Of a stretch of 64,000 bases of DNA, positions 7,760-58,144 are shown in pieces. A program made the position numbers and the translations under genes. The number at the start of each line of letters is the position of its first letter. Positions within the stretch are counted from its first letter, which is position 1. The notes under the pieces were generated by a model. The model ran no database searches. It saw only the letters and a program-made list of their open reading frames with translations, and was not told the origin of the DNA. Source of the DNA: Candidatus Nomurabacteria bacterium (lineage in GTDB: Bacteria; Patescibacteriota; Minisyncoccia; Phycocordibacterales; UBA9973); contig JAIOPO010000001.1 of NCBI GenBank assembly GCA_021413905.1, forward strand, positions 9,159 through 73,158. Direction: 5' to 3'.

Positions 7760-10351
7760 ATGCAAAAAAACAAAGCAACAACTGAAGGTAGCATTATCGT
7801 CAAAGGCGCACGAACGCACAATTTGAAAAATGTGACGGTGGAAATGCCTCGCGGGAAAATGATAGTTTTTACCGGTCTTTCAGGTTCCGGAAAAAGTTCA
7901 TTGGCTTTTGATACTATTTTTGCCGAGGGACAAAGACGATATGTGGAATCTCTTTCTTCTTATGCGCGACAATTTTTAAAACAAATGGCAAAGCCGGACG
8001 TGGATGAGATAGAAGGATTAAGTCCTGCGATTTCAATTGATCAAAAATCTAGATCAAACAATCCGCGTTCGACAGTGGCGACTATCACAGAGATTTATGA
8101 TTATCTTCGTGTTCTTTATGCGCGCGTGGGGCGTCCGCATTGTTTGACGTGCGGAGATGAAATAAAAAAACTTTCAAATGAAGAAATTATAAAATTCGTG
8201 ATGGAGAAAATTTCTAAACTTTCCGGTGGAAAAAAGAAAGTGATGGGCGTGGAATTCGACGATACTCCGATACAAATATTTGCTCCAATGGTGCGAGGCA
8301 GAAAAGGCGAATACTATCAATTGCTTTATGATTTGCTTGGCAAAGGATATACCAAGGTCCGCGTGGATGGCACGATGAAGATTTTACGTGAACGTATTGA
8401 TTTATCAAAAACAAAAAAACATGATATTGATGTCTTGGTTGATGAATTTTCTGCGCATGAATTTGCGGTGAAAGATATGAAAGATGTCGAACTGCGTTTA
8501 TCTGAATCAGTCGAGCGAGCATTGTTGGAATCAGACGGATTGATAAAAGTTTTAATAAATAAAGAAGAAACTTTATTATCTGCAAAATTTTCTTGCCCGA
8601 AAGACGGCTTTTCTTTTCCAGAAATAGAACCACGTCTTTTCTCTTTCAATTCTCCACACGGAGCTTGCCCTGAATGTCATGGACTTGGCACAAAACATAT
8701 GTTTGGCGAAGATACTTGTGATGAGTGTAAGGGTGCGAGACTTCGCCCAGAAGCGTTGAAAGTATTTTTATCTGACAAAGAAATCAGTATCGTGGATTTT
8801 ACCGCAATGTCTATCGAAGATGCAGTATTATTTTTTAATAAATTAAAATTAACAGCGCAAGAGCGTGAAATATCTGCAGTATTATTGAGGGAGATTTCTT
8901 CGCGTTTGGAATTTCTTTTAAATGTAGGTTTGGAATATTTATCGCTCGATAGACGAGCAAATACTTTATCCGGCGGAGAAGCTCAGAGAATTCGCTTGGC
9001 TTCACAACTCGGTTCACGCCTTGTCGGAGCATTGTATGTTTTAGATGAGCCAACAATTGGTTTACATCAGAGAGACAATGAAAGACTTATTAAAACGCTT
9101 ACGGATTTGCGTGATTTAGGTAATACTATAATAGTCGTGGAGCATGATGAGGATACCATTTACTCTTCGGATTTTATTGTAGACATTGGTCCAAAAGCCG
9201 GAGTGCACGGCGGGGAAATAATCGTTGCGGATTATTTGGATAAACTTTTAACCGCACCGAAAAATACTTCAAAGTCTAGAACACTCGCATATTTGAGAGA
9301 AGAAGCAAGAATAGAAATTCCGGAAAAAAGACGTGAAGCAGAAAAAGGTAGTATTAAAATAGTCGGTGGTAAAATTTTCAGTATTAAAAATTTAAATGCG
9401 GAAATACCGCTCGGCAGGTTGGTTTCTATCACCGGTGTTTCCGGCTCAGGTAAAAGTTCTTTTATGTATGAGATTTTACATAAGAATTTGCAAGCCAGAT
9501 TTGAAAGAAAATATCGTAGTGCACAGACTTTTAATTGCGCATCTTTTTCTGGAAGCGAATATTTACAACGTGCAGTATTAATAGACCAAAGTCCTATAGG
9601 CAGAACACCGAGATCAAATATTGCGACTTATACTGGAGCATTTACTTTCATTCGTGATTTATTCGCGGAGACAGAAGAAGCGCGTTTCAGAGGCTGGAAG
9701 TCAAATAGATTTTCTTTCAATGTAAAAGGTGGACGATGCGAAGCTTGCGAAGGTAATGGTGAAATAGCTGTGGAGATGCATTTTTTGCCGACAGTTTATG
9801 TGACTTGTGATGTCTGCAATGGAAAAAGATTCGATAAAGAAACTTTGAAAGTAAAATATAAAAAGAAAAATATTTATGAAGTTTTGCAAATGACCGTGGA
9901 GGAGGGCTTGAAATTCTTTGAAGATATTCCTGCTATTTCTGATAGATTGAATAGCTTGGCTGATGTTGGATTAACTTATGTAAAATTAGGACAAAGCGCA
10001 ACGACGCTTTCTGGCGGAGAAGCGCAACGCGTGAAAATCTCCAGCGAGCTTTTCCGTCCGTATTTGGAAAAGACGATTTATCTTTTAGACGAGCCGACTG
10101 TGGGCTTGCATTATGATGATGTTCAGAATTTGATAAATGTTTTGGAAAAATTGGTACACAAGGGGCATAGTGTGGTAGTCATTGAGCACAATATGGATTT
10201 AATAAAATCTTCTGATTATATTTTAGACTTTGGTCCTGAAGGGGGAGATAAAGGTGGTATGTTAATAGCCAAAGGTACACCGGAACAAGTGGCGAATAAT
10301 AATAAAAGTTTCACCGGACAGTATCTTAAAAAAGTTTTAAGGAAGAAATAA
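7760..10351 (+). CDS. uvrA: excinuclease ABC subunit A
   Basis: GLSGSGKSSLAFDTIFAEGQRRYVESLS, zinc-finger cysteines and two ABC modules. Confidence 0.95.
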   Translation: MQKNKATTEGSIIVKGARTHNLKNVTVEMPRGKMIVFTGLSGSGKSSLAFDTIFAEGQRRYVESLSSYARQFLKQMAKPDVDEIEGLSPAISIDQKSRSNNPRSTVATITEIYDYLRVLYARVGRPHCLTCGDEIKKLSNEEIIKFVMEKISKLSGGKKKVMGVEFDDTPIQIFAPMVRGRKGEYYQLLYDLLGKGYTKVRVDGTMKILRERIDLSKTKKHDIDVLVDEFSAHEFAVKDMKDVELRLSESVERALLESDGLIKVLINKEETLLSAKFSCPKDGFSFPEIEPRLFSFNSPHGACPECHGLGTKHMFGEDTCDECKGARLRPEALKVFLSDKEISIVDFTAMSIEDAVLFFNKLKLTAQEREISAVLLREISSRLEFLLNVGLEYLSLDRRANTLSGGEAQRIRLASQLGSRLVGALYVLDEPTIGLHQRDNERLIKTLTDLRDLGNTIIVVEHDEDTIYSSDFIVDIGPKAGVHGGEIIVADYLDKLLTAPKNTSKSRTLAYLREEARIEIPEKRREAEKGSIKIVGGKIFSIKNLNAEIPLGRLVSITGVSGSGKSSFMYEILHKNLQARFERKYRSAQTFNCASFSGSEYLQRAVLIDQSPIGRTPRSNIATYTGAFTFIRDLFAETEEARFRGWKSNRFSFNVKGGRCEACEGNGEIAVEMHFLPTVYVTCDVCNGKRFDKETLKVKYKKKNIYEVLQMTVEEGLKFFEDIPAISDRLNSLADVGLTYVKLGQSATTLSGGEAQRVKISSELFRPYLEKTIYLLDEPTVGLHYDDVQNLINVLEKLVHKGHSVVVIEHNMDLIKSSDYILDFGPEGGDKGGMLIAKGTPEQVANNNKSFTGQYLKKVLRKK

Positions 10352-10421
10352 GGGGAAGCTTGCCCTGTAGTGAGCTTTGCTCTACTGCGGGGTATTTGAA
10401 AAAAGTACTTAGAAAATAAAT

Positions 10422-11744
10422 ATGAAAAATTTAGATTTAAAAAAAAATAAAATTCCAGACAAATCAGGGGTTTATTTTTTTATGGGAGGTAAAAAAATCC
10501 TTTATATTGGCAAAGCCACATCTCTAAAAGACAGAGTAAAAAGCTACTTCCCCTCGACTACGCTCGGGGCAGGTCGGCTTTTGGATTCTCGCGGACCGTT
10601 GATTACAGATATGGTTACAAAAGCTACAAATATTAAATGGCAGGAAACTGACTCGGTTTTAGAAGCACTTATTTTAGAAACGAATTTGATAAAAAAACAT
10701 CAGCCATATTACAATACAAAAGAAAAAGATGATAAAAGTTTTAATTATGTTTGCATAACGAAAGAGGAGTTGCCCAAGGTTTTGATTGTCAGAGGTAGAG
10801 ATTTACAAAAGAAAAAGAAGAATTCTCCCGCCTTCGCCCTCGGAGACATAGGACAGGGAACCCACGGCTCCTTGAATTCTTCTGTTTCTTTTTCCAGTGT
10901 GTTCGGTCCTTTTCCAAACGGCGGGCAATTGAAAGAAGCTTTGAAAATAATTCGTAGAATATTTCCTTTCTTAGACGAAAAAAGTAAAAATCATTATGAA
11001 TTTTACAAGCAAATAAATCTAGTTCCAGAAAAAAAAGATTTGTTATTAAAAAATATTAAAAATATAAAACTCTTTTTCGAGGGTAAGAAAAAATCTATTT
11101 TAAAAAATCTTGAAAAAGAAATGAATGTGTATGCAAAAAATCACGAATTTGAAAAAGCAGGTGAAATAAAAAGACAGATTTTTGCATTGAAGCATATTAA
11201 TGACATATCCCTTATCAAGAACTTACCAGAGAAGAATTTTCCTGCCTTCGCCCTCGGAGACATAGGACAGGGAACCCACGGCTCCTTAAATTCTTCTCTG
11301 TTTAATTCTTTCCGCATAGAAGCATATGATATAGCTCATATGTCTGGCAAAAATATGGTGGGTGTGATGGTGGTATTGGAAAATGGTGAAGTGAATAAAA
11401 ATCAATACAGAAAATTTTTAATAAAAAATTACACAAGTTCAAATGATACTGGTGCATTGAGTGAAGTTTTGTCTCGTCGTTTGAAACATGCAGAATGGCA
11501 GTATCCAGATTTGATTGTGGTGGATGGTGGAACAGCTCAAAGGAATGTCGCACTTAAAATATTGAAAGAATTTAATTTAAAAATACCCGTGTCGGCAGTG
11601 GTAAAAGACGAAAAACATAAAGCGAAAATGATATTGTCCGCCGATTCTAAATTTAAAAAAGCAATTTTATTGGCAAATTCTGAGGCACATAGATTTGCTA
11701 TAAAATATCATAAAATTAAAAGAAATAAAGCTTTTTTGGGTTAA
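10422..11744 (+). CDS. uvrC: excinuclease ABC subunit C (short form; GIY-YIG and endonuclease domains, no C-terminal (HhH)2)
   Basis: GIY-YIG (GVYFF...ILYIGKA) and RIEAYDIAHMSG ... LIVVDGG ... EAHRFAI motifs. Confidence 0.85.
   Translation: MKNLDLKKNKIPDKSGVYFFMGGKKILYIGKATSLKDRVKSYFPSTTLGAGRLLDSRGPLITDMVTKATNIKWQETDSVLEALILETNLIKKHQPYYNTKEKDDKSFNYVCITKEELPKVLIVRGRDLQKKKKNSPAFALGDIGQGTHGSLNSSVSFSSVFGPFPNGGQLKEALKIIRRIFPFLDEKSKNHYEFYKQINLVPEKKDLLLKNIKNIKLFFEGKKKSILKNLEKEMNVYAKNHEFEKAGEIKRQIFALKHINDISLIKNLPEKNFPAFALGDIGQGTHGSLNSSLFNSFRIEAYDIAHMSGKNMVGVMVVLENGEVNKNQYRKFLIKNYTSSNDTGALSEVLSRRLKHAEWQYPDLIVVDGGTAQRNVALKILKEFNLKIPVSAVVKDEKHKAKMILSADSKFKKAILLANSEAHRFAIKYHKIKRNKAFLG
10816..10883. mobile_element. 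68-bp GC-rich MITE-like insertion with 9-bp terminal inverted repeats (agaagaatt / aattcttct), in frame inside uvrC (copy 1)
   Basis: Near-identical to copy 2 (3 mismatches). It encodes PAFALGDIGQGTHGSLNSS. GC content is far above the surrounding sequence. Confidence 0.6.
11231..11298. mobile_element. 68-bp GC-rich MITE-like insertion with 9-bp terminal inverted repeats, in frame inside uvrC (copy 2)
   Basis: Same element 415 bp downstream, same frame, same encoded peptide. Confidence 0.6.
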
Positions 11745-21227: not shown

Positions 21228-21962
21228 ATGCTAGACTATACATATGTCCTTAGTAATAGGCTATTAGCTTTATTAATAAGGACTTTCCAGTTTAAGCTAA
21301 TTTGGCTTATGAGTTTAGCGGAGCAGAACCGCGTTATTATGAAAAACAAAACATTAATACGATTCCTGGAGTCCTTTGTTTTATTGCCAGTAATCACGAC
21401 ATCAATGCCAGTTGGAAATGTTCCAATGAACAATATGAATGTTGTACCTCCACAAGTCGTATTATTACAACAAAAGAATATAGAGATTGGCGGATTTTTA
21501 GCTTTTAACCAAGTTGTTGATCCAAAAATCGAACAAATCAAAGCTCAAGGTGAAGCAATCGATGCGTATTTTAAAAAATATGATATGCCCTTGGAAGGTC
21601 TCGGTCAAAAAATGGCTGAAGAGGCTGATAAGAATGATATTGACTGGCGTCTTTTGCCTGCTATATCTGCTCGTGAATCTACGGGTGGTAAACAAGCTTG
21701 TAAAAGAGTTGCTCATAATTTCTTTGGCTGGGGTTCTTGTAAAATAGGCTTTAAGTCTGATCAAGAAGCTATTGAGGTTTTGGCTCGTAATTTGGGTGGT
21801 AATAATCCTAATACAGCACATCATTATGATGGTAAGACCAACAGAGAGATTTTACAAAAATACAATCCTCCGTCTATTGTTCCTCGTTATGCGGATCAGG
21901 TTATAAAAATCATGAATGAAATCGGGGATGTTGATTTAGGAGTAGAGACTGTAAATAGTTAA
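21228..21962 (+). CDS. glucosaminidase (GH73 / FlgJ-like) family cell-wall hydrolase with an N-terminal anchor (start may be 21306 or 21339)
   Basis: ISARESTGGKQACKRVAHNFFGWGS matches the LESGWG...NNLFG motif. Confidence 0.55.
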   Translation: MLDYTYVLSNRLLALLIRTFQFKLIWLMSLAEQNRVIMKNKTLIRFLESFVLLPVITTSMPVGNVPMNNMNVVPPQVVLLQQKNIEIGGFLAFNQVVDPKIEQIKAQGEAIDAYFKKYDMPLEGLGQKMAEEADKNDIDWRLLPAISARESTGGKQACKRVAHNFFGWGSCKIGFKSDQEAIEVLARNLGGNNPNTAHHYDGKTNREILQKYNPPSIVPRYADQVIKIMNEIGDVDLGVETVNS

Positions 21963-21978
21963 AAATTGATTAAAATAC

Positions 21979-22023
21979 AAAATGCCCCGCGACCATATGG
22001 TCGCGGGGCATTTTGTATTTTTT
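21979..22023. terminator. bidirectional terminator formed by a 36-bp perfect GC-rich palindrome between convergent genes
   Basis: aaaatgccccgcgaccatatggtcgcggggcatttt followed by a T-run. Confidence 0.7.
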
Positions 22024-22028
22024 CTAAC

Positions 22029-23129
22029 TTATTCCAAATGCAACAATGTCATTTTTTGATCTTTTGGTTCAAAAAGAGTTATTTGAAAATTGTAAGTTTT
22101 TCCAAGTTCCAATTTTTCATGAAGCTTTGCTTCAGAACCGAAAGTAGAATTGTGAACAAGTCCAGCCACGCCTTCTTTGATAGATACCAATGCGCCGTGT
22201 TTATTGTATTTAATCACAACACCTTTGATAATATCTCCTTTTTTCAATTTACCTTCGTATTCTTTCCAAGGGTTTTCCTTTAAAGCTTTGATAGAAAGAG
22301 AAATCTTGCCGTCTTTTATTTCAATAACTTTCGCACGGATAGGGTCGCCAACTTTAAACATTGAACGAGGATCTTCCACTAAGCCCCAATCAAGTTCAGA
22401 AATGTGAACTAATCCTTCTAATTTATCTTCAAGTTTCAAGAATACTCCGAAATCTACGATACCGGCAATTGTACAATCAATTTCATCTCCAATATTGTAT
22501 TTACTTAAAATTTCTTTTTTCTCATCAGGGTTGTTGTCTTTTTCAGAAAAGATAAGTTTGCCTTCTTTTGGTAAAGTCGAAATCATCATTACAGATATTT
22601 TTTGACCTACCAATTTTTTCAATTCTTTCAAGATTTTATCTTTATCAGAATCCAATACACGAGGATAATGATCTGCTTTTAATTGAGAAGCAGGCAAGAA
22701 TCCTTGTATGCCTTGCCATTCTAAAATGAGTCCTCCTTTGTTTGCATCTTTGATCTCCAAATCCATTATAGTCTTTGATTTGATAGCTTTTTCAGCTTCA
22801 GACCAGATAAGAGCTTGTTTTGCTTCTTTCAAGGAAAGCTCCACATATCCGTCTTCATTTTCAACTTCGACTACTTTAGCTTTGATTAAGTCTCCAGCAT
22901 TTATCTTCTTTATGATGTCTTTTGCATTTATGAATTCACGACCATAAATGATACCTGTGCCAAAAGGCGCAAGATCTACATATACAGATGATTTTTTTAT
23001 TAAAATCACTGGTCCTTCTACTAATGCATCGACTTCGAGTTTTACAGCACTACGATCTACTATTGATTTTAAAACTTTGTTTTCGTTTTCATCAATAGTT
23101 ATTACTTCTTCTTTTAATGATTTTTTCAT
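22029..23129 (-). CDS. rpsA: 30S ribosomal protein S1 (four S1 domains)
   Basis: Repeated S1-domain motifs (GD.I...V......G..L.L; GLVHISEL). Confidence 0.85.
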   Translation of the reverse strand: MKKSLKEEVITIDENENKVLKSIVDRSAVKLEVDALVEGPVILIKKSSVYVDLAPFGTGIIYGREFINAKDIIKKINAGDLIKAKVVEVENEDGYVELSLKEAKQALIWSEAEKAIKSKTIMDLEIKDANKGGLILEWQGIQGFLPASQLKADHYPRVLDSDKDKILKELKKLVGQKISVMMISTLPKEGKLIFSEKDNNPDEKKEILSKYNIGDEIDCTIAGIVDFGVFLKLEDKLEGLVHISELDWGLVEDPRSMFKVGDPIRAKVIEIKDGKISLSIKALKENPWKEYEGKLKKGDIIKGVVIKYNKHGALVSIKEGVAGLVHNSTFGSEAKLHEKLELGKTYNFQITLFEPKDQKMTLLHLE

Positions 23130-34607: not shown

Positions 34608-34637
34608 AAAAGCTTTTTCATATGTCTGACATATGGG
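34608..34637. repeat. REP-like double palindrome (aaaagctttt plus catatgtctgacatatg), solo copy immediately 3' of tRNA-Leu(TAG)
   Basis: Same two hairpin modules as those flanking the Y1 transposase at 57370-58144. Confidence 0.7.
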
Positions 34638-35489: not shown

Positions 35490-36995
35490 TTATTTTTGTA
35501 CTATTGAAAATGATTCTAATATATCTCCTGCGACTATTTCTATTTTTGACTCTATCATTGTTCCGAATTCAGTGCCTTCTTCGACTTCACTTGTTTTAGT
35601 TTTACCTTTTTCTAAATTTACGATTTTACCTTTTCCGATTTCAAATTCACGACGAATTATTTTTACTGTTTCTCCTAGTGATATTTTACCTTCTGTGACT
35701 TTACCTCCTACTATTTGTCTTTCTTTTGTTCGGCTAAATGCTTTTAATATTTTTACTTTTCCTTTTGTCTCAGTTGTTTCTACTCTTGGGCGTCTACGTT
35801 CCATTTCTTCTGTGAGCCATTCTGTCATTTTGTAAATAATATCAAAAAAAGAAATTGTAACATTTCTATTCTGTGAAAGCTCAATAGCATTTTTATCAGC
35901 TTTTACGTTGAAACCTATAACTATCGCGTCTTCTGCAGAAGTTATGTTTTTAATATCTGATTCGGAAACAGGACCTGTACCTTTTTGAATTATTTTAAAT
36001 TCAGCACTATCGCTTGTGATTTTACTTATTTCTTTTTCAATAGCTTCTAGAGATCCTGCAACATCTGTTTTTATTATTATTGGTATAATTTTTTTATTTG
36101 TATCTGTTTTGTTGGTATTGTTTTCTTTTTTATCTGTATTTGATTTTTTTTCTTTTATATATTCTTCAGCTTCACTTTTTTTATCAAAAGATTTGAATTC
36201 AGCTCCAATTTGAGGAATTTTATCAAAACCAACTAGACGAATAGGGGAAGAAAATTCAGCTTCATTTATCATTTTACCTAAAAAGTTTTCTATTATACGA
36301 GTAGAACACATTGCGTCTTCTACTACTACTGTCATTCCTTTTTTTAATGAGCCGTTTTTTATTATAAGGGTTGCTTGAATACCACGTTTTGGATCAAGAT
36401 TTGATTCTATTACATAACCGGAAGCATTTGCATCTGTATCACCTTGAAAATCTTCCATCTCTGCTGTAATCAAAATAAGTAAAAGTAAATCATCTATACC
36501 TTTTCCTGTTTTTGCAGAAATTTCAGCAAAAGGGACTTTGCCTCCATAGTTTTCGAGATATATTTCATTTTCAGCAAGATTCATTTTTGTTTTTTCAATA
36601 TCTGCGCCCGGTTTGTCTATTTTATTTATTGCTACTATAAAAGGTATGTTGCTATTTATAATAGTTTTATACGCTTCGATTGTTTGAGGTTTTACTCCGT
36701 CTTCTGCTGAGACTACAAGTATTGCGATATCAGCGAGTTTCGCTCCACGTTCACGCATTTTAGAAAAAGCCTCGTGACCTGGAGTATCTAGAAAAGTTAT
36801 TTTTCTGTCTTTATTGTGTTCATCTTTATGAATAACTTCATAAGCTGAAATGTGTTGAGTGATTCCTCCAGCTTCACGTTCGACAATATTAGACTTTCGA
36901 ATGTAGTCGAGTAGGGTAGATTTGCCATGGTCAATATGCCCCATGACTGCGACTACTGGTGGACGTTCTATTTTTTTGTCTGCATTTTTTTGCAT
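35490..36995 (-). CDS. infB: translation initiation factor IF-2 (short form; G domain plus C-terminal domains only)
   Basis: PPVVAVMGHIDHGKSTLLD and DTPGHEAF. Confidence 0.9.
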   Translation of the reverse strand: MQKNADKKIERPPVVAVMGHIDHGKSTLLDYIRKSNIVEREAGGITQHISAYEVIHKDEHNKDRKITFLDTPGHEAFSKMRERGAKLADIAILVVSAEDGVKPQTIEAYKTIINSNIPFIVAINKIDKPGADIEKTKMNLAENEIYLENYGGKVPFAEISAKTGKGIDDLLLLILITAEMEDFQGDTDANASGYVIESNLDPKRGIQATLIIKNGSLKKGMTVVVEDAMCSTRIIENFLGKMINEAEFSSPIRLVGFDKIPQIGAEFKSFDKKSEAEEYIKEKKSNTDKKENNTNKTDTNKKIIPIIIKTDVAGSLEAIEKEISKITSDSAEFKIIQKGTGPVSESDIKNITSAEDAIVIGFNVKADKNAIELSQNRNVTISFFDIIYKMTEWLTEEMERRRPRVETTETKGKVKILKAFSRTKERQIVGGKVTEGKISLGETVKIIRREFEIGKGKIVNLEKGKTKTSEVEEGTEFGTMIESKIEIVAGDILESFSIVQK

Positions 36996-37476: not shown

Positions 37477-38664
37477 ATGAAGAAATCAAAGAAAAAAATA
37501 AATAACATAAAATTTAAAAAGAAAAACATCTATATAGATTTCTCGGCTTCCTTTTTACCAAATCCGAGTTCTATTCATGATTTAGGTGTTAAGGCTAGAA
37601 AAGATTTGGAAAATGCCAGAAAAGAAATATCTTTGGAATTATTTGCTCGTCCAAATGAAATTATTTTTACTAGTGGGGGAACAGAAAGTAATAATTTAGC
37701 TATATTGGGAGTAGTTACATATGTCAGACATAGGGAAATCCCTATGTCTGACATATGTTCTGTCGTAGTTCCTCACATTGTAACCACAAACATAGAACAT
37801 CCTTCTGTTTTGGAAGTTTATAAATATTTGGAAAAAACAAAACAAGCAGAGGTGACTTATATCAACGTAGAATCAAATGGCATAGTTGACCCAAAGAAAA
37901 TAAAAAAATCAATAAAAGAAAATACTGTTTTGGTTTCTGTTATGTACGCTAATAATGAAATAGGGACTATTCAACCGATCAAAGAGATTGCAAAAGAAAT
38001 TAGACATTTTAGAAAAAATAGTAAAAGTGTTTTTCCGTTTTTCCATACTGATGCAGTGCAAGCGGTAAATTATTTGGATTTAAATGTTGAAAAATTAGGA
38101 GTAGATTTGATGACATTGACGGGTTCAAAAATAGAAAATTCAGGGAAAGTCGGTATTTTGTATAAAAAAAACAATGTCATATTGTCTCCAATAATGCATG
38201 GTGGAGATCAAGAATTCGGACTTCGTCCAGGAACAGAAAATCTTATTGCTATTTTAGATTTTACAAAAGCTTTTAAGAATGTTCGCAAAATAAAAGAAAA
38301 AGAATCTGTCCGACTTTCAAAATTGCGTGATTATTTTTTTGACAAAATTAAAAAAATGGACGAAAAAATAATCTTAAATGGAGATTTAAAAAACAGATTG
38401 CCGAATAATGTAAATATAACAATACCAAAAGTGCCGAGCGATTTGCTTGTGCTTGAATTATCTGCTCGTGGAATATATATATCTGAAAAAAGTGCTTGTA
38501 AGTCTGGTGACATAAAGTCTTCTCATGTAATACGCGCAATTTGTAAAAAAGATTCGCAATCTTTGCGTTTCTCTATGGGTAGAATAACAAATAAAAATGA
38601 TATTGATTATACTCTGAAATCTTTATCTCAAATTTTGACCAAATTAAAAAAGTGGTATAATTAA
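37477..38664 (+). CDS. cysteine desulfurase / class V aminotransferase (IscS/NifS-like) carrying an in-frame 42-bp palindromic insert
   Basis: IIFTSGGTESNNLAILG...NIEHPSVL...VSVMYANNEIGTIQPI...HTDAVQA. Confidence 0.8.
   Translation: MKKSKKKINNIKFKKKNIYIDFSASFLPNPSSIHDLGVKARKDLENARKEISLELFARPNEIIFTSGGTESNNLAILGVVTYVRHREIPMSDICSVVVPHIVTTNIEHPSVLEVYKYLEKTKQAEVTYINVESNGIVDPKKIKKSIKENTVLVSVMYANNEIGTIQPIKEIAKEIRHFRKNSKSVFPFFHTDAVQAVNYLDLNVEKLGVDLMTLTGSKIENSGKVGILYKKNNVILSPIMHGGDQEFGLRPGTENLIAILDFTKAFKNVRKIKEKESVRLSKLRDYFFDKIKKMDEKIILNGDLKNRLPNNVNITIPKVPSDLLVLELSARGIYISEKSACKSGDIKSSHVIRAICKKDSQSLRFSMGRITNKNDIDYTLKSLSQILTKLKKWYN
37716..37757. repeat. 42-bp perfect palindrome (REP-like doublet), in frame inside the IscS-like CDS
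   Basis: acatatgtcagacataggga-aa-tccctatgtctgacatatgt. The arms contain the same catatgtc.gacata core as the REP elements. Confidence 0.75.
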
Positions 38665-47675: not shown

Positions 47676-47975
47676 ATAATATAATCTGGGTAACTTACAT
47701 TAGATGTGCATCTAATTGAAACACTAACGATGTATATGTGAACATTGCACTGGCACATTTTACCATTTTATTGTAGACTTAAAAAGTCAATTAAATATGG
47801 ACCTAACCCTTGAATTAACATTTAAGGCACGGTCAACAGTAATCCGCTCAGGAGCATAAAACCCATCATTGGGGTACCTGAGCGGTCGTATTGGGAAACT
47901 GATACGGATGGCGAAAGCTATCACCTAGTGGTGGGCTTTTTGCTACCAATTTTATTAGATTAAGATAAAAAATTT

Positions 47976-56840: not shown

Positions 56841-57368
56841 ATGAAAATAGTTGTTGGTTTGGGAAATCCTGGAAAAGAATATGAAAATACAAGACACAAT
56901 GCAGGTCGTATTGTGGTTGAAATTATTGAAAAAAAGTTATCTGATATAAAGATAAAATTTATCACACCAGATAATTTTATGAATAATTCCGGTAAGGCAG
57001 TCGCGCCTTTCATAAAAACAAAAAAAGATTTGGAAAATCTCGTAGTTATTTATGATGACATTGATTTGCCAATCGGAAAAATTAAAATTTCTTTCAATAG
57101 GTCCTCTGGTGGACATAATGGTGTGGGTTCAATTATTAAATCATTAAAATCTCAAGAATTTTTACGTATACGTGTGGGTATTTGTCCTGCGACACCGACA
57201 GGCAAATTAAAAAAACCAAAAGGAGAAGACGCAGTGTTAAAATTTTTGCTTGGAGAATTCAAAAAACCAGAACTCGACGAAATAAAAAAACTTTCAAAGA
57301 AAATAGCCGAAGCAGTGGAGACAATTTTCACCGAAGGCAAAGACAAGGCAATGAGCTTGTACAATTAA
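56841..57368 (+). CDS. pth: peptidyl-tRNA hydrolase
   Basis: MKIVVGLGNPGKEYENTRHNAGRIVVE. Confidence 0.9.
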   Translation: MKIVVGLGNPGKEYENTRHNAGRIVVEIIEKKLSDIKIKFITPDNFMNNSGKAVAPFIKTKKDLENLVVIYDDIDLPIGKIKISFNRSSGGHNGVGSIIKSLKSQEFLRIRVGICPATPTGKLKKPKGEDAVLKFLLGEFKKPELDEIKKLSKKIAEAVETIFTEGKDKAMSLYN

Positions 57369-57369
57369 T

Positions 57370-57406
57370 CCCATATGTCTGACATATGGAAAAACTTTTG
57401 TTTGTA
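57370..57406. repeat. left REP-like double hairpin (catatgtctgacatatg plus aaaaacttttg) flanking the Y1 transposase
   Basis: 37-nt direct repeat of the 58108-58144 copy with 1 mismatch. Confidence 0.75.
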
Positions 57407-57421
57407 TGATATAATACATTT

Positions 57422-58120
57422 ATGTCATATAGAAAAGAGGCGCTTGTGGACGGTGAATATTATCACGTCTACAATCGGGGTAACAGTAAACAAAATATAT
57501 TTTTAGACAAAGCTGATTACGAGCATTTTGTGAAATGTCTTTTTGTGTGTAATACTCATCGTAATTTTAATTTTCGAGATAATATTGTTTCTCCAAATAT
57601 TGATTCTTTTGATTTTGATCGGGGAGAGACTTTGGTATCTATTGGTGCTTGGGTTTTAATGCCAAATCATTTTCATATTTATTTAACAATCAATCCAAAT
57701 CGTTCTCATAAATCTGACAATTGGAAAAAGAATAATATTTCAGAATTCATGCGCAAACTTTCCACCGCATATTCAAAATATTTTAATGCAAAATACAATA
57801 GAACTGGCGGACTTTTTGAAGGTACTTTTAAATCTGTGATGATGTCGCAAGATACTCAGTCAAAATATATTTTTGCTTACATACATTTGAATCCGGTAAA
57901 AATTATTGATCATAATTGGCGGACAAAAGGTATTGATAAAAAGAAAGCTGTGGATTTTTTGAATACTTATAAATGGGGTAGTTATTTGGATTATGCCTCA
58001 GAAGAAGAACGTAAAGAAAGTACTATATTGCAAAAGTCTGATTTTCCAAAGTATTTTCTTGATATTAAAGATTTTAATGATGAAATTTTTGACTGGCTCA
58101 GTTTTCCCCCATATGTCTGA
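57422..58120 (+). CDS. tnpA: IS200/IS605-family Y1 (HUH) transposase, RAYT-like
   Basis: HVYNRG...MPNHFHIYL (HUH motif) and the catalytic-Tyr region YIHLNPVK. The C-terminal codons and stop lie inside the right hairpin. Confidence 0.75.
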   Translation: MSYRKEALVDGEYYHVYNRGNSKQNIFLDKADYEHFVKCLFVCNTHRNFNFRDNIVSPNIDSFDFDRGETLVSIGAWVLMPNHFHIYLTINPNRSHKSDNWKKNNISEFMRKLSTAYSKYFNAKYNRTGGLFEGTFKSVMMSQDTQSKYIFAYIHLNPVKIIDHNWRTKGIDKKKAVDFLNTYKWGSYLDYASEEERKESTILQKSDFPKYFLDIKDFNDEIFDWLSFPPYV

Positions 58121-58144
58121 CATATGGAAAAGCTTTTGTTTGTA
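58108..58144. repeat. right REP-like double hairpin flanking the Y1 transposase
   Basis: cccatatgtctgacatatggaaaagcttttgtttgta. Confidence 0.75.

Follow-up and report, generated by a model that had tools for sequence, protein, structure and literature searches.

An in-frame palindrome in a cysteine desulfurase gene of a Candidatus Nomurabacteria bacterium: a probable doublet of a REP-type hairpin associated with a RAYT-like transposase

We examined a 64,000-nt stretch of contig JAIOPO010000001.1 from a Candidatus Nomurabacteria bacterium (Patescibacteriota; assembly GCA_021413905.1), here referred to as the window, which carries a perfect 42-bp palindrome inside the gene of an IscS/NifS-like cysteine desulfurase (Table 1). 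The source genome was read over these 64 kb, and the copy counts given here hold for this stretch. The host open reading frame (ORF) matched the aminotransferase class V family (PF00266, E 4.9e-47), and its nearest NCBIfam models were those of NifS and IscS. A previous description made from the letters alone (the sequence-only reading) had reported a 20+2+20 inverted repeat, inserted in frame as 14 codons in a cysteine desulfurase gene that stays open. Its observation is confirmed and its interpretation supported by the present analysis, with the correction that the palindrome, given as 37716-37757, starts and ends one base further on. The two 20-nt arms are 100% complementary and lie 2 nt apart (acatatgtcagacataggga-aa-tccctatgtctgacatatgt); the left arm at 37717-37736 is ACATATGTCAGACATAGGGA and the right arm at 37739-37758 is TCCCTATGTCTGACATATGT, each arm is itself a hairpin, and the head-to-head join of the two hairpin copies reads …GACATAGGGA-AA-TCCCTATGTC…. 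The palindrome begins with the first base of a codon of the ORF and accounts for residues 81-94, the peptide expected from read-through translation of the insert being YVRHREIPMSDICS.

The folding energy of the palindrome region was -37.7 kcal/mol as RNA (z = -7.3 against shuffled sequence) and -19.8 kcal/mol as single-stranded DNA (z = -8.1). An intrinsic terminator was rejected, as a GC-rich stem with a T run was not found at 37717-37758, where the sequence 3′ of the palindrome is TCTGTCGTAG. A known structured RNA family was rejected as well, since the Rfam scan of the window, whose matches were limited to rRNA, tRNAs and LOOT RNA, returned nothing at the palindrome. The insert region is bracketed by a 6-nt direct repeat, GTAGTT (37711-37716 and 37765-37770). 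This repeat contains GTAG, the tag of many proteobacterial REPs (repetitive extragenic palindromes); it probably represents only the G-V-V and V-V codons, and no flanking repeat of this type was seen at the inserts of the other loci.

As judged from its sequence and its predicted fold, the host enzyme is most likely functional with the insert. The full-length protein keeps every residue that is the same in all 26 aligned orthologs (the window protein and 25 others), including H108, D192, K218 (the pyridoxal phosphate (PLP) lysine) and C341. The insert lies between the conserved blocks TESNNLA..G and PHI.TTNIEH, where, as the sequence-only reading had proposed, solved IscS proteins are shorter; the best solved homologs are cysteine desulfurases and have a gap of 11 residues precisely where the insert lies. 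In the AlphaFold2 (AF2) model (mean pLDDT 70.9), for which Foldseek returned the IscS/NFS1 fold with a TM of ~0.7, the insert site is a loop that joins helix 68-85 to strand 100-104. The helix is lengthened by the first five residues of the insert, and residues 86-99 form a coil with pLDDT 66-68 versus 88 and 77 in the flanks.

The closest ortholog, P0002, with 72-75% amino acid identity and the same IF-2/DUF4446/IscS/ClpB synteny, is also shorter at this place, and no copy of the hairpin was found in the 21 kb around its gene. Its loop reads G-VFKNLKN-PHI (7 residues) versus G-VVTYVRHREIPMSDICSVVV-PHI in the window. The ortholog alignment that had been suggested as a check on the sequence-only reading therefore found the nearest relative without the insert, but with a loop 13 aa (39 nt) shorter and not exactly 14 codons. 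Because this length difference is 39 and not 42 nt, a clean insertion event cannot be reconstructed.

The two halves of the palindrome belong to a hairpin family that occurs elsewhere in the window. A search with the core CATATGTCWGACATA, allowing up to 2 mismatches, gave 11 matches versus 0.16 expected from shuffles, the core sites being 34619-34635, both arms of the doublet, 57372-57388 and 58110-58126. This agrees with the earlier statement that the arms share their hairpin with the flanks of a Y1 transposase gene and with a site beside tRNA-Leu. In total the window has five hairpin units, distributed over four places as three extragenic singlets and one intragenic doublet. The hairpins have CCC/GGG feet and a AAAAGCTTTT tail, without a GTAG or CGTC foot tag; a GTAG does occur 2 nt before the doublet, but it belongs to the G-V-V codons. 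The copies at 57-58 kb bracket the transposase ORF as direct repeats of 37 nt, with CCCATATGTCTGACATATGG first and AAAARCTTTTGTTTGTA after it.

This ORF encodes a candidate REP-associated tyrosine transposase (RAYT), and its TGA stop codon falls in the loop of the downstream hairpin. It matched the NCBIfam model NF047646 (REP_Tyr_transpos) with E 1.5e-12 and 47.6 bits versus a cut-off of 80, and Pfam Y1_Tnp with 22 bits versus a cut-off of 23; both the HUH and the Tyr motifs are invariant among its homologs. More than 5,500 homologs were found at E <= 1e-5, the best of them 60-84% identical and P0122 the closest; the named top matches are from Patescibacteria, and some homologs are annotated as RayT by JGI. 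Each of three fetched homologs (L090, L091 and L092) has a genome-specific hairpin upstream and at the stop codon, with a shared GTC-N-GAC apex. The gene follows pth both in the window (pth at 56841-57368) and in L090 (pth at 9390-9947, RAYT-like gene at 10001-10693). Since it is single copy in the window and its pth-adjacent position is conserved, we regard it as a resident RAYT with cognate REPs rather than a multi-copy insertion sequence. A further hairpin lies in frame inside the RAYT-like ORF, at the orthologous codon position in the window, L090 and L092. The window copy is degenerate, whereas those of L090 and L092 are perfect hairpins, identical to each genome's own flanking hairpins, which indicates that in-ORF copies at fixed sites track the repeat family of the genome. 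This in-ORF hairpin could have a role in autoregulation or serve as a cis site for the enzyme. TnpA-REP of E. coli and TnpA of IS200/IS605 cut and move hairpins as single-stranded DNA, and the RAYT-like enzyme may act in the same way.

Table 1. Genes, hairpins and palindromes of the window and of the compared loci (L numbers).
Feature	Locus	Position or architecture	Strand	Sequence and remarks
IscS/NifS-like cysteine desulfurase gene, intact, 395 aa	window	37477..38664	+	Pfam, NCBIfam, orthologs, AF2/Foldseek
42-bp perfect palindrome, two inverted REP-like hairpin copies head to head	window	37717..37758	.	encodes TYVRHREIPMSDIC
REP singlet and tail	window	34608..34637	-	CCCATATGTCAGACATATG + AAAAAGCTTTT; extragenic, 4 nt from tRNA-Leu(tag)
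REP singlet and tail	window	57370..57406	+	CCCATATGTCTGACATATGG AAAAACTTTTGTTTGTA; between pth stop codon and RAYT-like start
REP singlet and tail	window	58107..58144	+	CCCATATGTCTGACATATGG AAAAGCTTTTGTTTGTA; direct repeat of upstream copy; overlaps end of RAYT-like ORF
Degenerate third REP copy	window	57705..57730	+	CTCATAAATCTGACAATTGGAAAAAG; inside RAYT-like ORF over invariant S98-D99
RAYT-like Y1 (HUH) transposase gene, 232 aa	window	57422..58120	+	HUH PNHFHIY, Tyr YIHLNP, NF047646
RAYT-flanking hairpin	L090			GCACAAGTCCGACTTGTGC
RAYT-flanking hairpin	L091			GCCCTAAGTCCGACTTAGGGC
RAYT-flanking hairpin	L092			CCACATGTCAGACATGTGG
Hairpin inside RAYT ORF (S98-D99)	L090	10276-10294
Hairpin inside RAYT ORF (S98-D99)	L092	10273-10297
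IscS loop palindrome	L009	21+2+21		arm TTTTTGGGAGCCGAGCTCCCA
IscS loop palindrome	L015, L025	17+4+17		arm TTGGGAGCTCGGCTCCC
IscS loop palindrome	L017	22+1+22		arm CGTCGGGTGTTGGACACCCGAA; CGTC-tagged family, unlike that of the window
IscS loop palindrome	L008	14+9+14		arm GGGTGTTGGACACC
IscS loop palindrome	L016	11+1+11		arm CCTCCCCCTAC
IscS loop palindrome	L050	19+1+19		arm GTCGGACGTGCGACGTCCG
IscS loop palindrome	L053	21+5+21		arm TGTAGGAGTTTGACTCCTACA
IscS loop hairpin	L033	single hairpin, 10-bp stem		TGTCCATGTCgGACATGGACA
IscS loop repeat	L007	two direct copies		GAGTGTCCAACAC
IscS loop palindrome	L094	perfect 21+0+21		ATACATAGGAGTTTCCTATGT
IscS loop inverted ends	L096	20-nt inverted ends, 46-nt spacer
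Second IscS loop	L023	867-907
Second IscS loop	L025	3421-3457
Third IscS site	L033	2220-2240
Third IscS site	L037	11019-11041
IF-2 doublet	L001	8574-8617
IF-2 doublet	L008	8611-8654
IF-2 doublet	L015	8614-8653
IF-2 doublet	L094	8589-8632

The hairpin family of the window was also detected in a second genome. In Cand. Nomurabacteria GW2011_GWB1_43_19 (L004), a genome of 2015, one extragenic singlet and one doublet were identified; the doublet, CCCCTATGTCAGACATAGGGG-AACTT-CCCCTATGTCTGACATAGGGG, contains the unit CCCCTATGTCWGACATAGGGG twice. Its host is a Mur ligase ORF (murD), in which it is in frame, encodes PYVRHRGSSPMSDIG and forms a 13-residue insertion relative to the solved MurD 3lk7. The same element is thus present in the same reading frame in two different essential genes of two genomes, which shows that the doublet family is mobile. 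The second genome came from a scan of the GTDB representative genomes for CATATGTCWGACATATGG, a set that does not include the source genome; the scan gave 4 loci, and the mapping of the family that the sequence-only reading had called for was achieved to this extent. No candidates came from a peptide census with a concatenated query of the window-family peptides, and a scan of viral contigs for the doublet unit returned two isolated single hairpins, which were uninformative.

We compared the loop carrying the insert in 85 orthologous IscS loci, with 3 more for the count of palindrome families. The conserved blocks on both sides were in the same frame in all 85, with a loop spacing that was always a multiple of 3 (9-120 nt) and contained no stops. 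Loops of at least 36 nt were present in 39 loci, and 10 of these hold palindromes that were reached by 0/200 shuffles; the palindrome scores were bimodal, either perfect or none. Among the 85+3 loci, palindromes or hairpins of at least 10 unrelated families are found in this one loop (Table 1), and their arms, as in the window, are usually small hairpins themselves. In the 120 best-matching proteins the loop has a mode of 10 residues (range 7-36), ~50 of them have 16 residues or more, and the loop peptides form recurring families that back-translate to palindromes; up to 36-45 residues are tolerated in this loop by orthologs. A perfect palindrome is found in this loop in ~15% of orthologs, versus ~5 doublets outside IscS in ~0.95 Mb, a frequency far above that expected of random insertion. 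Many orthologs, the closest one included, have no insert, the insertion points vary by 2-19 nt from the upstream anchor within the loop, and decayed versions exist at both the peptide and the DNA level.

In case of L015 and L025, whose genes are 78% identical, the 17+17-nt arms are identical while the adjacent bases have diverged, including a 3-nt indel. A recombination tract or a horizontally acquired loop cassette was rejected for this pair, since the identity stops at the palindrome edges. L009 shares its right-hand boundary and its stems with L015 and L025, but both of its hairpin loops are flipped from CGA to TCG. In a neighbour-joining tree of 119 orthologs the families were scattered; the tree was star-like (all ~60-65% identical) and was therefore not relied on for counting gains. 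The contig of one ortholog, L010, has a 22+0+22 palindrome right at its end (positions 1-44, GATCTAGGTGTCCGGCACCTTTAAAGGTGCCGGACACCTAGATC), and such elements probably break metagenome assemblies.

In-frame hairpins recur at a second and a third IscS site, about residues 170-185 and about residues 320-340, and L025 has two different doublet families in one iscS gene. Hairpins or doublets were also found in frame in TopA (L037), BipA (L009) and MurD (L004). The interdomain linker of IF-2, at about residue 290, contains perfect doublets of four unrelated families in 4/34 loci; the window's own IF-2 (35490-36995) has no doublet. For ClpB, no hairpin doublet was found in 31 loci, 83 kb in total. 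All of the 14 doublets in the first 1.07 Mb were intragenic; at a coding density assumed to be ~88-90%, 0.88^14 is ~0.17, and, with this density being an estimate, the absence from intergenic DNA is not significant. A restriction of doublets to genes was in any case rejected, as a stop codon in L094 is immediately followed by a second doublet of its IscS-loop family (L094 21156-21194).

Two of the compared loci, L007 and L094 (ENA ERZ250395xx), have IF-2 and ClpB split with frame breaks at homopolymers; these are probably indel errors, and disruptions in them are untrustworthy. The IF-2 gene of L094, split around its doublet, was accordingly not counted as a disruptive insertion, as frame breaks occur in several of its genes near homopolymer runs. 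Very long perfect hairpins with 27-31-bp arms, such as CCGGCGCACAAATA...GGAAGTC-N-GACTTCC...TGTGCGCCGG, were observed at L029 6367-6425, L033 7033-7093 and L037 16967-17029. Long hairpins are also present in L030, L031, L034, L041 and L055; they are mostly extragenic, and some have the RAYT-type GTC-N-GAC apex.

Elsewhere in the window, a perfect 25+0+25 palindrome (AAAATACAAAATGCCCCGCGACCAT|ATGGTCGCGGGGCATTTTGTATTTT, 21972-22021) lies between the convergent ORFs 21228..21962 (+) and 22029..23129 (-) and looks like an ordinary bidirectional terminator. The LOOT RNA match (Rfam RF03000, 79 bits, E 3.3e-13) is at 47800-47922.

From these observations it is probable that the palindrome is a dimer of the genome's own REP-type hairpin, a REPIN/BIME-like doublet, and that the cysteine desulfurase remains functional and tolerates this RAYT-associated REP doublet in frame in one of its loops. 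The hairpin family would be the cognate repeat of the single-copy RAYT-like Y1 transposase 20 kb away. Moved by this enzyme, a doublet would have landed in frame in the IscS loop and would be translated as 14 extra residues, which we infer to be neutral for the enzyme. As the enzyme most likely stays functional, the doublet could persist as tolerated selfish DNA. Several points weigh against this account. The length gap to the nearest ortholog is 39 nt and not 42; between the doublet units (CCCTATGTC) and the singlets that flank the RAYT-like gene (CCATATGTC) there is a one-base difference in each half; and the RAYT-like protein scores under both the NCBIfam and the Pfam cut-offs. The unrelated perfect palindromes in the same loop of many orthologs are hard to explain as tolerated junk, and the arms of the L015/L025 family stay identical while the neighbouring bases diverge.

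With the last two points in its favour, the strongest alternative is that the hairpin is a maintained locus, either through homing or concerted re-insertion at an existing hairpin or because a strong hairpin within the ORF is selected; such a hairpin might, for instance, be bound by a protein, or it might slow the translation of iscS or affect the stability of its mRNA. We hold this for unlikely. Ten loops beyond the reach of the 200 shuffles, the ~50 expanded loops in 120 proteins and scores that are perfect or none speak for it, and so do four unrelated IF-2 families next to none in ClpB, arms preserved across genes that are 78% identical, and in-RAYT hairpins that match each genome's own flanking hairpins. 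On the other hand, insertion points that differ by 2-19 nt are more in keeping with a permissive region than with a precise target, there are decayed versions, and many orthologs lack the insert. The family identity between lineages could moreover result from independent insertions from a conserved master copy, and the star-like tree gives no gain count. The sites could thus recur because the loop is permissive, because new hairpins home to one already present, or because the hairpin is selected for; the copies at in-ORF sites could likewise stem from repeated insertion from conserved masters, from homing or conversion, or from hairpin selection.

As for the remaining explanations, it is very improbable that the insert inactivated the gene and left a pseudogene. 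The insertion is only 14 residues upstream of the PLP-stacking His108, which would make damage conceivable, but the ORF is open over its full length, the catalytic and all other invariant columns are kept, and the frame is preserved in 85/85 orthologs, which accommodate much longer loops. Equally improbable is that the ribosome hops over the insert, from GTA GTT before the hairpin to GTA GTT after it. T4 gene 60 and the Magnusiomyces mitochondrial byp inserts are skipped by the ribosome in such a manner, and in the window a 6-nt repeat does surround a very stable hairpin. A hop would, however, free the insert from any constraint on frame and stops, yet all 85 loci are in frame and stop-free; it would also leave a G-V-V-P-H loop shorter than that of nearly all orthologs, and the repeat was not seen at other inserts. 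An artefact of assembly or amplification (a fold-back chimera) is the least credible: palindromes can break assemblies, as in L010, but an independent Logan assembly of run SRR15633504 contains exactly the same 42-mer (L093 1241-1282), which makes an assembler artefact very unlikely, the same in-frame architecture occurs in dozens of unrelated NCBI, JGI and ENA assemblies, and the same family is in murD of the 2015 genome. Both possibilities named as fatal to the sequence-only reading, an artefact and a disrupted gene, are very unlikely.

A tolerated in-frame REP doublet agrees in many respects with systems already described. Rickettsia palindromic elements (RPEs) were reportedly treated by Ogata et al. 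in 2000. They are an established case of in-frame palindromic inserts (reviewed in PMC10969869). Intragenic REPs are known in several species, more than half of them being dimers or grouped repeats that encode 20-30 residues, and different REPs occupy about the same recB site in two Xanthomonas species (Di Nocera et al. 2013, PMC3733652); two REP superfamilies are defined by a GTAG or CGTC tag (PMC3733652). Like intragenic REP dimers and RPEs, the inserts discussed here are palindromes in frame in housekeeping genes, with extra peptides thought to lie in loops or linkers, and dimers are common. Those in iscS and murD are in frame, stop-free and absent from an ortholog, and a single family is found in unrelated genes (that of the window in iscS and murD; others in IF-2, TopA and BipA). 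RPE-1, with about 100-150 bp, differs from the 42 bp here, and there is no sequence similarity, nor is any expected; a further difference from both RPEs and intragenic REPs is that at least 10 unrelated families are found at the same loop of one gene, in addition to IF-2.

With REP, BIME and REPIN elements and their RAYTs (REPtrons), the window shares a repeated hairpin, a single-copy Y1 gene flanked by copies, inverted dimers and a transposase gene that is vertically inherited and syntenic (pth-RAYT in the window and L090). It differs in the patescibacterial host, the lack of a GTAG or CGTC foot tag, flanking copies that are direct and not inverted, a 17-nt tail, the score below the NCBIfam cut-off (47.6 vs 80 bits), the in-frame copy inside the RAYT ORF and the intragenic doublet. 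IS200/IS605 elements also have a Y1 gene between similar hairpins of the same orientation, here 775 bp overall, and short hairpin-only derivatives without a transposase (PATEs) occur elsewhere; unlike IS200/IS605, a single copy was found in 64 kb, at a conserved pth-adjacent site and with no tnpB. Translational-bypass inserts (T4 gene 60 and byp elements) are likewise short, mobile, hairpin-forming inserts in protein-coding genes, but they are skipped and need not be in frame, whereas here every instance is in frame and stop-free. The system is thus of a known class, and what is new are the phylum, the untagged GTC-N-GAC hairpin with direct flanking copies and, most of all, the recurrent occupation of the same coding sites by unrelated hairpin families. 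In the literature searches made, REP-RAYT systems were not described for the Candidate Phyla Radiation (CPR), and in a full-text search REPs were connected with it by no more than a passing mention.

The palindrome of the window, taken alone, is one more tolerated in-frame REP dimer, extending REP-RAYT to the CPR. Chance insertion and tolerance alone would lead one to expect doublets in other tolerant places as well; instead, the same IscS loop and the IF-2 linker recur. Tentatively, and at somewhat long odds, orthologous in-frame sites of Patescibacteria (two to three IscS loops, the IF-2 linker and the RAYT codon position) may be heritable landing pads for hairpin doublets, at which the hairpin would be kept sequence-perfect while its neighbours diverge and would be replaced by unrelated families between lineages. 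If this were true, it would mean either hairpin-directed homing or gene conversion by Y1 transposases in coding DNA, or selection for a strong hairpin within the ORF; an in-ORF hairpin could, as an example, be kept harmless by translating ribosomes and yet be a recognition site for a protein or nuclease. In practical terms, these palindromes probably break assemblies and inflate the apparent variability of protein loops in CPR genomes. In such gene-dense genomes the fitness effect of an insert should be visible, and whether REPs are junk, parasites or of service to the host, and how Y1 transposases choose their targets, becomes testable with public genomes.

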